From assembly GCA_964461035.1 (NCBI GenBank), contig CAYWRI010000004.1, positions 342-47,943 on the forward strand: DNA of 47,602 nt, written 5' to 3'. The DNA is from an uncultured Methanosarcinales archaeon. GTDB taxonomy: Archaea > Nanobdellota > Nanobdellia > Woesearchaeales > CAYZNE01. Shown piece after piece: positions 27,935-38,493 of this stretch. Within the stretch, counting starts at the first letter, position 1, and every line of letters begins with the position of its first letter. The translations under genes were made by a program, and so were the position numbers. Below the pieces are notes generated by a model. That model ran no database searches. It was not told where the DNA came from and saw nothing but the letters and a program-made list of their open reading frames with translations.

Positions 27935-28058
27935 AAAATAAGCAGAATATTTATTCTTTATAAATTATATGGATTTAATTTTATTAACTATTTAAAGTTC
28001 TCCTCTTAAAGAACAATCAATAACATTTTTAAATGAATATCTTTTCTCAAGTTTCATT

Positions 28059-28142
28059 GCCTCCGTAGCTTAGTGGTGGAGCGTGCGGCTGTTAAAGCTT
28101 ATTGAAACCGCAAGGTCACCAGTTCAAACCTGGTCGGAGGCG
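28059..28142 (+). tRNA. tRNA-Asn(GTT) with 12-nt intron at position 37/38 (28095-28106)
   Basis: Acceptor GCCTCCG/CGGAGGC, anticodon arm TGCGG-CT-GTT-A[AAGCTTATTGAA]A-CCGCA, T arm ACCAG-TTCAAAC-CTGGT. Confidence 0.92.
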
Positions 28143-28152
28143 TTTTTATCTT

Positions 28153-36414: not shown

Positions 36415-37296
36415 TTAATTATGATTTAATTCAACTTCACCCTTATCAAAGTTAATCGTAACATATTGCCCTTCTTTAATAAGTTTTGTTGCATTTTTTA
36501 CATTCATAATTACTGGAACATCAAATTCTTGAGAAACAAAAGATATGTGAGAAGTAAATCCTCCAGACTCAGTTATAACCCCAATTAATTTATTGAAATG
36601 CACAATTTGTTTTACACTAAATTCGTCTGTAACTAAAATCATTGGGTCAAATATTTTTCTTGAGTTTCCTTCTTTAAATATGATTGCTTTACCTGTAATT
36701 GAGCCTTCACCTAATGAAACTCCATGAAGTTCCTTATTGGATTCAAGAGGTTTCATGCCTGAATATTTATCGATTATTCTTGTACATTCATCAATCACAA
36801 TTTGTTCTTTTTTTAATTCAGCTAAGTTTTTAAGATCTTCAATAGCATCTAAAAGTCTTAAGCCTTTATAAATTCCCAATCTGTTTTCATCACAATTACT
36901 AAGTTTAATATCCACAATTTTTAAATTAGATAAAATCGAGCAATAATAAATATGAAAAGTATTAATCGTTTTTTTAATTCTGTCTTTTTTTAATTGTTCA
37001 AATAAATCTGCACTACAAGGAGTAATATCTAAATCATAATTCTGTTCTGTAAAAAAATTCATATATTGTTTAAAATATTTTGTTTTTCTTTGAGGAATTG
37101 ACTCTGCAAAATCTAAAAAAGATGGTTTCCAAGGAAGTTTTGCTGCATCAACAAATATATTTATGTGATTTTTTCTTAATTGTACTTTATAACCTGCAAA
37201 ATTTCTTGCATGTTTTCCTGTTACTATCCAATCTTCTTGTTCTATTCCCCAACTTCTTAAAAGTTTGATAATTTCTTCAAATATTTGAAAATTCAT
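36415..37296 (-). CDS. Degenerate NTase-like domain fused to a PEP-utilizer mobile (phospho-His) domain
   Basis: C-terminal ITESGGFTSHISFVSQEFDVPVIM; N-terminal DWIVTGKHA..AGY...HINIFVD..LPW similar to 2280-4619. Confidence 0.78.
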   Translation of the reverse strand: MNFQIFEEIIKLLRSWGIEQEDWIVTGKHARNFAGYKVQLRKNHINIFVDAAKLPWKPSFLDFAESIPQRKTKYFKQYMNFFTEQNYDLDITPCSADLFEQLKKDRIKKTINTFHIYYCSILSNLKIVDIKLSNCDENRLGIYKGLRLLDAIEDLKNLAELKKEQIVIDECTRIIDKYSGMKPLESNKELHGVSLGEGSITGKAIIFKEGNSRKIFDPMILVTDEFSVKQIVHFNKLIGVITESGGFTSHISFVSQEFDVPVIMNVKNATKLIKEGQYVTINFDKGEVELNHN

Positions 37297-37418
37297 AACA
37301 CGATAAAAATAGAGATAATATATAAATGTTTCTTTAAATAACTTAGTTCATAATATTAATATTAACTAAATAGCCATTTCTCAAAAAACTTATAAATAAA
37401 AAGTAATTATCTAAAGAT

Positions 37419-37502
37419 ATGAGAATTTCAACAATAAAATTAAATGCTTTAAATATGTGTAATCAAGGTTTACTTAGATTGAATTCTTGTTGTTGTTTCT
37501 AA
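37419..37502 (+). CDS. Putative Cys-rich leader peptide (uORF) of cysteine synthase, 27 aa
   Basis: MRISTIKLNALNMCNQGLLRLNSCCCF*; CTTATAAA at 37389, 30 nt before the ATG; TTTTTCTTTT tract downstream. Confidence 0.7.
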   Translation: MRISTIKLNALNMCNQGLLRLNSCCCF

Positions 37503-37584
37503 TAAATAATCTTAATTATAAAACTTATTAATTAATTTTTCTTTTACAAATATATTATTTAGGAGGTAATTAAAATGATGAAAG

Positions 37585-38493
37585 GTGATTATACCTGTAA
37601 AAAATATACTTGAAACAATAGGAAAAACACCCCTTGTTAAAATAAATAGATTAAATAAAAATAAAAATGTGAACATATTTGCAAAACTTGAGAGTTTTAA
37701 TCCTAGTGGAAGTATAAAAGATAGAATCGCTTTCAGAATGATAGAAGATGCAGAGATATCAGGAGAATTAACTAAAGAAAAAACAATAATTGAAGCAACT
37801 TCAGGAAATAAGGGTATTGGTTTGGCACTAGTAAGTGCAGTTAAAGGATATAACTTAGTGGTTGTTATGTCAGAATCAGTAAGTGTAGAAAGGCAAAAAA
37901 TTCTCAAAGCATATGGTTCAAAAATAATTCTTACTGATCCAATGAAAGGAACAGATGGCGCTATAGAAAAAGTAAGATTGATTCTAAGAGAAAATCCTGA
38001 AAAATACTATAATCCTAATCAATTTTGCAATGAAAATAATGTTCTTTCACATTATAATACTGCTGAAGAAATAATTTATCAGATGCAAGGTAAAATAGAT
38101 GTTTTTATTGCAGCTAAAGGAACTACAGGAACATTGATGGGTATTGGAAAAAAACTAAAAGAATTCAACTCTAAAATAAAAATCATAGGGGTTGAACCAA
38201 ACCTAAAACACAAAATTCAGGGTTTAAAAAATATGAAAGAATCAATAATTCCTAAAATATACAATCCTAATATTCTGGATAAAACCATTTTTATTGAAGA
38301 TGAAAATGCATTTCAAACAACAAGAGATCTTGCAAAACATGAAGGTCTTTTTGTTGGTATGAGTTCTGGGGCTACAATGTATGTCGCTTTAAGAATTGCA
38401 GAAAAAATGCATCAGGGAAATATTGTTGTTATTTTTCCAGATAATGGGGAAAAATATCTTAGTACAAATTTATTTATTACAACAGGGGTTTAA
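37585..38493 (+). CDS. cysM: Cysteine synthase (O-acetylserine sulfhydrylase, CysK/CysM family); start ambiguous
   Basis: IGKTPLV, AKLESFNPSGSIKDR, EATSGN, GTTGT, GMSSGA, PDNGEKYLST; some conserved positions deviate (SGNKG for SGNTG). Confidence 0.9.
   Translation: MIIPVKNILETIGKTPLVKINRLNKNKNVNIFAKLESFNPSGSIKDRIAFRMIEDAEISGELTKEKTIIEATSGNKGIGLALVSAVKGYNLVVVMSESVSVERQKILKAYGSKIILTDPMKGTDGAIEKVRLILRENPEKYYNPNQFCNENNVLSHYNTAEEIIYQMQGKIDVFIAAKGTTGTLMGIGKKLKEFNSKIKIIGVEPNLKHKIQGLKNMKESIIPKIYNPNILDKTIFIEDENAFQTTRDLAKHEGLFVGMSSGATMYVALRIAEKMHQGNIVVIFPDNGEKYLSTNLFITTGV

Follow-up and report, generated by a model that had tools for sequence, protein, structure and literature searches.

A putative cysteine-sensing leader peptide ahead of cysteine genes in Woesearchaeales archaea

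What is the role of a 27-codon reading frame that ends in a run of cysteine codons and stands directly in front of a cysteine synthase gene? The question is raised by a stretch of 47,602 nucleotides (nt), hereafter the window, from an archaeon labelled as an uncultured Methanosarcinales and placed by GTDB in the DPANN order Woesearchaeales (contig CAYWRI010000004.1, positions 342 to 47,943). In this window, a short upstream open reading frame (uORF) ending S-C-C-C-F-stop precedes, on the same strand and with a gap of 82 nt, a gene of the CysK/CysM family (cysK). An earlier note on this DNA had read the arrangement as a candidate cysteine-sensing attenuator. Our analysis leads us to consider it probable that the poly-Cys reading frame is a translated leader peptide, which would sense charged tRNA-Cys and control the RNA downstream of it.

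Recurrence of a poly-Cys leader ahead of cysK

Taken by itself, the host genome (1.26 Mb in 34 contigs, 92.5% complete, 28% GC) makes a weak case for a uORF above chance. This is because so GC-poor a genome contains 186 copies of (TGY)3, both strands counted, or about 0.01 per 170 nt; stop-to-stop frames with at least three Cys among their last six codons number 226. When a TATA box 21-24 nt ahead of an ATG is combined with at least three terminal Cys codons, three matches are found in the genome, and the window uORF is the sole intergenic one.

Comparison across relatives lifts the element far above chance. A cysK homologue (E ≤ 1e-40) was detected in 73 of 401 genomes of the order, at 77 places. 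This tally includes three genomes flagged as unpublished; six places, from these three genomes and from three contig ends, were left out, 71 places were analysed, and 69 cysK loci, those whose upstream sequence ran to 150 nt or more, were counted. The criterion, fixed beforehand, was a same-strand ATG-initiated open reading frame (ORF) of at most 80 codons, with its stop no more than 600 nt upstream and at least three Cys in its last six codons. Such an ORF precedes cysK in 39 of the 69 loci, against one of 69 when the same stretches were searched in reverse complement. A wider set comprised the closest 80 homologues from about 185,000 species genomes, 78 of them with enough upstream sequence. 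Here the homologues labelled as bacterial, mostly Desulfobacterota and about 60% identical, gave one match in 69, and their reverse strand also one, while three of the six labelled as archaeal and one of the three labelled as candidate phyla radiation matched. The single bacteria-labelled match (locus L067) lies on a low-GC contig bearing the archaeal motif described below and is probably mis-binned. It is the ratio of 39/69 to 1/69 in each of the two controls that places the element far above chance; by a tally of family labels, the elements span at least 36 family-level groups of the order. Cys-rich uORFs are thus found ahead of homologous genes, as the earlier note had anticipated, and its proposal of a cysteine-sensing attenuator gains support from the recurrence of TATA-positioned Cys-run ORFs in these loci.

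An exact 22-mer scan of the approximately 185,000 species genomes returned nine stretches, of which four are apparently contigs already sampled, one is a new Woesearchaeota cysK locus and four are chance matches within coding frames. A different arrangement was seen in locus L044 of a candidate phyla radiation bacterium (DAOVOJ010000009.1, labelled Moraniibacteriota), in which a poly-Cys ORF, MINQKINQIMMCCMCFC followed by a stop, lies about 145-196 nt upstream of cysK. This ORF has a bacterial-looking -35/-10 promoter, an ATG at or near the predicted transcript start, and a GC-rich hairpin with a T-run downstream; it looks like a classical bacterial Cys attenuator ahead of the same cysK clade.

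The anatomy of the leader was derived from 56 unique elements, namely the 39 anchored on cysK and 17 collected by a pattern scan (see below). In the 39 cysK-anchored elements the TATA 8-mer is TTTAAATA or a near variant, with no mismatch in 29 and one mismatch in 10, and in 32 of them 22-23 nt separate its end from the ATG. This spacing fits a start of transcription at or next to the ATG, and from it we infer a leaderless mRNA. Sorted by frame relative to the Cys run, the TATA-positioned ATGs fall 50 : 1 : 1, and all ATGs in the same stretches 109 : 44 : 25. The possibility, allowed for in the earlier note, that the run might be conserved merely as out-of-frame nucleotides is not what these promoter-positioned ATGs indicate; the Cys run is kept in frame. 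The ORFs are short (median 10 codons, range 7-29) and contain 3-9 Cys codons, the background in long ORFs being 10-13 per 1000 codons. In 54 of the 56 elements Cys is the last residue and the stop follows directly; over all 56, TAA is used 21 times, TAG 21 times and TGA 14 times. The synonymous variation between TGT and TGC for which the same note had looked is also present (167 TGT, 47 TGC). The N-terminal residues are unconserved, as illustrated by MITLCCC, MKQTIDCCC and MTKTTCCCDCCCC, and conservation within the ORF is confined to the ATG, the terminal Cys run and the stop.

A linear motif, TTCTTTCATTGTTTTAG (consensus (G)AATTCTTTCATTGTTTTAGTT), usually lies directly 3' of the stop. Its frequency was determined in the 39 elements that had been found without reference to it: TTCT occurs within 12 nt of the stop in 28 of 39, whereas a control region gave 2 of 39 and shuffled sequences 3.2; for CATTG at positions +6 to +10 the numbers are 19 of 39, 1 of 39 and 0.8, respectively. 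The register of the motif tracks the G of TAG or TGA and not the reading frame, and the motif therefore acts as nucleic acid. RNAalifold gave no consensus secondary structure for the 56 elements (energy 0.0), and folding of the window between 37419 and 37600 gave z = +1.18 relative to shuffles, i.e. no significant structure. Classical terminator/antiterminator logic is therefore absent, in agreement with the remark in the earlier note that no bacterial-style hairpin pair is evident; an Rfam scan of 36900-38000 with E up to 10 yielded sub-threshold chance matches only. The U-rich tract to which that note had assigned a role is present in the window, but tracts of this kind are not enriched across relatives: U4/U5 tracts follow the stop in 21 of 39 elements, while the control region has them in 16 of 39 and shuffling yields 17.2. 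Because of this lack of enrichment over controls, we do not use U-tracts as evidence.

The window copy keeps the essential features of this family, with 22 nt between the end of the TATA 8-mer and the ATG and with a terminal Cys run, its four Cys codons being one at 37458 and the three of that run. The TATA box, the 27-codon ORF with its S-C-C-C-F-stop end, the U-rich tract and the Shine-Dalgarno (SD) sequence are all located where the earlier note had placed them. At 27 codons the uORF stands at the long end of the family range, it is one of the two elements out of 56 that end in Phe, and it has no CATTG; on these features it is a divergent member of the family. We also observed that GAATTCTT, corresponding to the first eight nucleotides of the usual post-stop motif, sits inside the window uORF immediately 5' of the Cys run instead of after the stop, which may mean that the element has been rearranged or shifted.

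Genes behind the leader and a model for its action

If the leader senses cysteine, which genes does it precede besides cysK? A scan blind to the downstream gene, with the pattern TGYTGYTGYTRR, a gap of 4-14 nt and CATTG, was run over the same 401 genomes and matched in 141 of them (a tally that includes five genomes flagged as unpublished, which were not used). From its matches, 24 places, mostly new loci, were chosen by eye for motif-like sequence after the stop and are not a random sample. TATA, ATG and Cys run are combined in 16 of these, and the other eight are chance matches inside longer frames. Behind the 16 leaders we found serine acetyltransferase in L192, L197, L199 and L214; tRNA-Cys, serine acetyltransferase and Cys-tRNA ligase in L200, L204 and L205; tRNA-Cys and then serine acetyltransferase in L198; tRNA-Cys in L203 and L206; a LAGLIDADG ORF and then Cys-tRNA ligase in L201; a PIG-L-family deacetylase in L207; cysK in L196; an unknown 97-residue ORF in L187; and a contig end or unclear remnant in L183 and L202.

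Most of these names come from hidden Markov model searches. CysE was recognized in L192, L197, L198, L199, L200 and L214 with 181-213 bits against TIGR01172, whose cut-off is 210.65; these scores lie at or just below that cut-off and all above that of the EpsC-type serine acetyltransferase model. CysS was recognized in L200, L201 and L205, and TusA, DUF2061 and PIG-L in L010, L011 and L207, respectively; TusA thereby joins the genes seen behind true leaders. CysE in L204 and L205 and CysS in L204 were named by eye, and the ParB-like ORFs mentioned below are weak or visual matches (ParB_N in L123, 23.3 bits for a cut-off of 26.3). A tRNA-Cys(GCA) gene starts 20-113 nt after the leader stop in 14 of the 56 elements (ARAGORN, introns allowed), and 14 of the 15 tRNAs called after leaders are tRNA-Cys. 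As we read these distances, the tRNA gene is too close to the motif to have a promoter of its own, so that the leader ORF would lie within the 5' leader of the pre-tRNA.

Further features were seen at individual loci. In L207 (G327:C11), a canonical leader, MNLGCCC followed by a stop and the motif, stands ahead of the PIG-L/LmbE-family deacetylase gene (Pfam E = 8.7e-25). The PIG-L/LmbE family includes enzymes for the synthesis of Cys-containing low-molecular-weight thiols, and this leader hints that the regulon extends past cysteine synthesis and charging. In L201 (G377:C1), the ORF between the leader and cysS encodes a 258-residue LAGLIDADG-type endonuclease and may be a mobile insertion in a leader-controlled operon. 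Two similar SD-led mini-ORFs, MQTNYQTVNPEDKAEEFRDK and MQKMISITADDRSVDFEEK, each closed by a stop, lie between the leader and the next gene in L192 (roughly 47-110 nt beyond the stop of the leader) and in L011 (ahead of the DUF2061 gene), and they may represent a further conserved small ORF. Lastly, the interval between leader and cysK in L003 (G025:C177) contains a tRNA-like gene with apparent introns, for which the ARAGORN call of Lys is doubtful, and then a second copy of its 3' part together with the cysK ribosome-binding region, a local duplication of about 50 nt.

Based on the above data, we propose that the ribosome translating the poly-Cys ORF reads the supply of charged tRNA-Cys. We favor a sensor of charging because the regulon consists of amino-acid synthesis, tRNA-Cys and its ligase. 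Control would have to act on the RNA and not on a downstream ribosome-binding site, because one element in four has a tRNA gene as the first gene behind the leader. With Cys-tRNA in good supply, the ribosome would complete the ORF and depart, and the naked U-rich nascent RNA, with its UGU repeats and UUCUUUCAUUGUUUU, would be prone to early transcript end or degradation. The most plausible agent of early termination would be FttA/aCPSF1, an orthologue of which is encoded in the host genome (TIGR03675, 840.5 bits, cut-off 580.2). When Cys-tRNA is scarce, the ribosome would stall on the last codons and shield the RNA just behind RNA polymerase, allowing transcription to proceed into the cysteine genes. 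In the published pre-termination complex, FttA holds the stretch of nascent RNA that lies 20-36 nt behind the 3' end and makes its cut at -22/-23, and steric exclusion between FttA and a coupled ribosome is put forward as the authors' hypothesis (PMC11616081). If the ORF has 10 codons and the polymerase has just reached the motif's end, about 58 nt into the transcript, the segment contacted by FttA would comprise the Cys run, the stop and the first bases of the motif, and a stalled ribosome would occupy the very stretch where FttA would bind. aCPSF1 is reported to act together with terminator U-tracts (PMC8716108).

Several points weigh against this proposal. We infer both the translation of the uORF and its regulation by cysteine from sequence comparison. 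Thirty of the 69 cysK loci fail the strict criterion, and a looser scan recovers about seven; in L042 and L214, the leader lies farther upstream, ahead of an operon. Related genomes are, moreover, non-independent samples, and the lack of a consensus structure and of enriched U-tracts belongs on the same side of the balance. The termination model draws on the conserved motif and on geometry alone, and shielding of the RNA against decay from the 5' end would explain the data about equally well. In L007 and L110, no more than about 20 nt separate the uORF stop from the SD of cysK; a ribosome stalled there should cover the SD, which is at odds with a simple rule that stalling switches the gene on. 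In the host genome, no cysE scores above its family cut-off (the best candidate, a hexapeptide-repeat protein, reaches 23.9 bits, and tblastn found none), which makes the physiological role of the window CysK uncertain. Finally, the window copy, with its Phe end, its length and no TTCT..CATTG after the stop, may be decaying, and the TATA-like TTATAAAA at 37516 could drive a separate constitutive cysK transcript.

The last two points define the rival explanation that survives best, although we regard it as highly improbable: the family would be real, while the window copy would be a decayed or chance ORF, with cysK transcribed from the TATA-like sequence at 37516. It would account for the missing motif, the CCCF end and a length near the top of the family range; (TGY)3 is common in the genome, and three genomes of the same genus have no cysK to offer for comparison. 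However, the exact TATA-ATG spacing and the terminal Cys run have been retained, the uORF is the only intergenic hit of the genome-wide scan for promoter, ATG and Cys run, and downstream of it stands the same SD-led cassette (see below) as in L030, L032 and other loci with canonical leaders.

A second alternative is translational attenuation of the mycobacterial type, in which the Cys tract would pair with the downstream SD. We judge this very unlikely for the archaeal element. The architecture does match, in that a Cys run closes the short ORF and the start, leaderless in mycobacteria (10.1101/834739), is predicted to be so here as well, and many loci have a strong SD 30-120 nt downstream. 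On the other hand, no consensus pairing between Cys tract and SD exists in the 56 elements, and the minimum-energy fold of the window, itself no better than shuffles, pairs the Cys tract with the 5' part of the uORF and not with the SD. By inspection, UGU repeats are unable to pair with GGAGG, and the tRNA genes that come next in 14 of the elements have no SD to sequester.

Two further readings seem to us scarcely credible. A functional Cys-rich micropeptide, involved for example in metal or sulfur binding and co-expressed with its neighbors instead of acting as a sensor, would agree with an ORF that is conserved, probably translated and adjacent to sulfur genes (TusA, ParB/Srx-like), but only the Cys run is kept while N-terminus and length vary, with peptides down to the size of MITLCCC; the post-stop nucleotide motif tied to the G of the stop points to a role at the RNA or DNA level, and an association with tRNA-Cys and cysS would be expected of a sensor of charging. 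An untranslated DNA or RNA element, in which a TG-rich repeat with GAATTC..CATTG would serve, e.g., as the operator of a cysteine regulator and the ORF would be incidental, would suit a motif that is linear, includes the palindrome GAATTC and forms no RNA structure, and synonymous variation alone is no proof of the Cys frame because a TGT-to-TGC change is silent in the overlapping YTG (Leu) frame too; yet the promoter-positioned ATGs favor the Cys frame by 50 : 1 : 1, a stop of any of the three kinds comes right after the run in 54 of 56 elements, and the window, L007 and L110 are without the motif and still retain ATG, Cys run and stop.

A second conserved element at the start of cysK

The features of the window locus are collected in Table 1. 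They include a second element, which bears on how translation of cysK begins. The SD described in the earlier note as leading into cysM is indeed present upstream of the gene, but the ATG it would serve (37575) lies in another frame than cysK, whose own frame has its first start codon at GTG 37585, right after two in-frame stops.

Table 1. Features of the leader and the cysK start in the window (positions in the window numbering)
Feature	Position	Strand	Basis or detail
Promoter: A-rich stretch like a B recognition element (BRE), then TATA-like CTTATAAA/TTATAAAT	37383-37388, then 37389-37397	+	sequence reading
Leader uORF, 27 codons, MRISTIKLNALNMCNQGLLRLNSCCCF then stop	37419..37502	+	ATG 37419, TAA 37500-37502
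GAATTCTT, first 8 nt of usual post-stop motif	37481..37488	+	comparison with element alignment
TGT TGT TGT, proposed stall site, one codon ahead of stop	37488..37496	+	sequence reading
Spacer between uORF and SD	37503..37561	+	holds TTATAAAA and T5CT4; without CATTG motif
TATA-like TTATAAAA, possible second promoter	37516..37523	+	sequence reading
T5CT4 tract	37536..37545	+	sequence reading
Shine-Dalgarno GGAGGT, 7 nt upstream of ATG 37575	37562..37567	+	sequence reading
SD-led short ORF MMKGDYTCKKYT then stop, 12 codons, frame 0, overlapping cysK start	37575..37613	+	sequence reading
Conserved cassette GGTGATTATACCTGT	37584..37598	+	SD-like GGTGAT, TAT, rare ACC, Cys TGT 37596-37598
Cysteine synthase, CysK/CysM family, 302 aa	GTG 37585..38493	+	+1 relative to SD-led ATG; profile matches

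The same layout, with a GGAGG-type SD and an ATG in frame 0 and the main ORF in +1, is found in 11 loci. In nine of them it precedes cysK (window, L006, L024, L030/L111, L032, L142, L144, L153, L155), and in two (L042, L123) it precedes a ParB/Srx-like gene between leader and cysK. Common to all is a 15-nt block composed of GGTGRNTAY, a GC-rich rare codon and TGY, with six positions invariant at 2.0 bits and flanks unconserved on both sides. In each of the 11 loci the Cys codon shares its frame with the SD-led ATG, and the junction UGY is invariant. The codon before it is always rare (CGG four times, CCG twice, CCC twice, CGC, GCG and ACC), representing 4-12% of the respective codon families; ACC accounts for 6.1% of Thr codons in the host genome. 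Third positions of the cassette are fixed in both frames, and 11 nt upstream of the Cys codon, a constant distance, stands a +1-frame GTG (10 loci) or TTG (one locus). We considered and rejected an assembly slip in the A6 run as the source of the offset, since the same +1 offset occurs in 11 assemblies and contigs from two DNA runs, one of which may be the source sample, match the window between 37505 and 37800 without an indel. These two were the only sequencing runs listed as containing the locus, with no RNA run among them.

Two explanations of the cassette stand level in our estimation, each a little short of an even chance. In the first, the cassette would be a programmed +1 frameshift site triggered by a hungry Cys codon, and cysteine starvation would switch the enzyme on. 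In the second, translation of cysK would initiate in the ordinary way at the GTG, which would be overlapped by a regulatory short ORF. Initiation at the GTG has no obvious regulatory logic, because that start would be hidden under a ribosome that stalls on the Cys codon. Anything other than these two is unlikely. At the homologous site of the cysK of L215, an ATG stands directly before the GTG and the frame-0 ORF is broken.

A bulk scan of the 401 genomes for the cassette pattern GGTGRNTAYCSNTGY gave matches that looked about as frequent as in a reversed-pattern control. Among the 40 places fetched there was no new cassette; L215 is a homologous site, and the rest lie inside long ORFs, e.g. 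of a DnaJ-like gene. The degraded cysK of L024, scanned again alongside them, does carry the cassette. The cassette is thus rare and tied to leader-bearing loci. We consider it possible, though less likely than not, that two ribosome-read cysteine sensors act in series, namely the poly-Cys leader, which would gate early termination or decay of the transcript, and then a hungry-codon +1 frameshift cassette at cysK and at the ParB/Srx-like gene. The latter would send ribosomes from the strong SD-led ATG into the enzyme's frame solely when the Cys codon is starved, an autoregulatory frameshift in the manner of antizyme or prfB.

The identity of the window gene as a cysteine synthase of this family is supported by Pfam PALP (E = 3.1e-68) and NCBIfam TIGR01136 cysKM (363.9 bits, cut-off 344.15), and genes for the ribosomal proteins S27e and L44e adjoin the locus according to profile searches, in keeping with an archaeal host. 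No leader was found in the regions upstream of the host genome's own tRNA-Cys and cysS. The nearest homologues of the window cysK include many from Desulfobacterota, at about 60% identity; the distribution of the gene looks patchy, and it was possibly acquired by transfer. Elsewhere in the window, at 28058-28143 on the forward strand, ARAGORN in its default mode called a tRNA-Stop with anticodon tta. With introns allowed, the call becomes a 74-nt Ser(tga) tRNA with a 12-nt intron and no long variable arm, and an intron at the canonical position 37/38 would give the anticodon GTT (Asn). We rejected a suppressor tRNA in favor of an intron-bearing one.

Relation to known leader peptides and recoding sites

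How does the archaeal element compare with known systems? The trpL and hisL leaders are classical cases of transcription attenuation by a leader peptide, and tnaC is a case of Rho control. The poly-Cys leader shares with trpL and hisL a short ORF rich in codons specifying the pathway's amino acid and a ribosome whose position would decide transcription, and with tnaC a decisive ribosome at the end of the ORF, adjoining RNA that a termination factor needs. It shows the usual traits of a leader-peptide attenuator, namely a position in front of pathway genes, three to nine Cys within a median of 10 codons and a variable N-terminus. In contrast to all three, it has archaeal machinery, a probably leaderless start and no alternative hairpins, mutually exclusive terminator/antiterminator structures having been found neither in the 56 elements nor in the window leader. 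The T-box of Bacillus controls cysE-cysS by reading uncharged tRNA with a structured RNA. There too, cysteine synthesis, serine acetyltransferase and Cys-tRNA ligase all depend on how far tRNA-Cys is charged, but in the archaeal element the reader would be a translating ribosome, and no conserved structure is seen.

The closest relatives in appearance are actinobacterial. In mycobacteria, polycysteine leaderless short ORFs precede cysteine-metabolism genes, collectively termed a 'ribulon' (Canestrari et al. 2020, 10.1101/834739). Both systems combine a short ORF, leaderless in mycobacteria and predicted to be so in the archaea, and a Cys run at its 3' end with a place before several cysteine loci and with stalling as the proposed sensor. 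The mycobacterial mechanism is bacterial and translational, the Cys tract forming a very stable duplex with the downstream SD, whereas the archaeal element has a BRE/TATA promoter, no conserved pairing, a post-stop motif, and a tRNA gene and cysS in its regulon. The two probably arose independently. For Actinobacteria, Cys leader peptides had been predicted earlier, with Rho-dependent termination proposed (Seliverstov et al. 2005, PMC1262725). That proposal is the closest match to the mechanism put forward here: a Cys run near the stop, no conserved terminator hairpins and factor-dependent termination beside the ORF. It differs in that the factor is bacterial Rho instead of FttA/aCPSF1, in being a prediction only, and in having neither a tRNA gene nor a conserved post-stop motif. 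Poly-Cys leader ORFs in Actinobacteria are thus known, predicted in 2005 and demonstrated in 2020, and what is new here is the domain, the machinery, the downstream logic and the tRNA gene.

The cassette finds its analogues among recoding sites. In prfB, an SD-like sequence lies 3 nt before the frameshift junction codon, and the SD-like GGTGRT of the cassette has the same spacing relative to its junction codon. At the antizyme sites GCG_UGA_C and CCG_UGA_C and at the Ty3 site GCG_AGU_U, P-site codons without cognate tRNA and slow A-site decoding drive the shift (PMC5009743). The combinations CCG_UGY and GCG_UGY of the cassette mirror the yeast antizyme sites, with a sense Cys codon replacing the stop. 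The idea of a hungry codon fits, since slow decoding of UGY would depend on the supply of cysteine. Unlike prfB and antizyme, the cassette has, in every one of the 11 loci, a +1-frame GTG or TTG start at a conserved place, from which ordinary initiation is possible. A natural regulatory frameshift on a Cys codon was not found in the parts of the frameshifting literature examined, and no amino-acid leader peptide or ribosome-mediated attenuator in Archaea was found among the papers listed by full-text searches of the Creative Commons literature of PubMed Central and of bioRxiv, subscription journals being outside this scope.

Ribosome-mediated attenuation is textbook bacterial biology, and the poly-Cys leader, if correctly interpreted, would be the first family of amino-acid attenuators in Archaea. 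It would bring the biosynthetic enzymes, a tRNA gene and the corresponding ligase under one type of leader, in a family that spans at least 36 family-level groups with a defined promoter, ORF, stall site and motif, whose regulon comprises cysK, cysE, cysS and tRNA-Cys, and that includes a pre-tRNA with an apparently translated 5' leader. The element makes the competition between ribosome and FttA/aCPSF1 on nascent RNA, advanced as a hypothesis in PMC11616081, open to test. The cassette, should it act as a natural regulatory hungry-codon +1 frameshift, would constitute a new kind of control. In practical terms, the element accounts for the odd GTG start that gene callers give to cysK, and it marks cysteine-related genes in the poorly annotated genomes of DPANN archaea.

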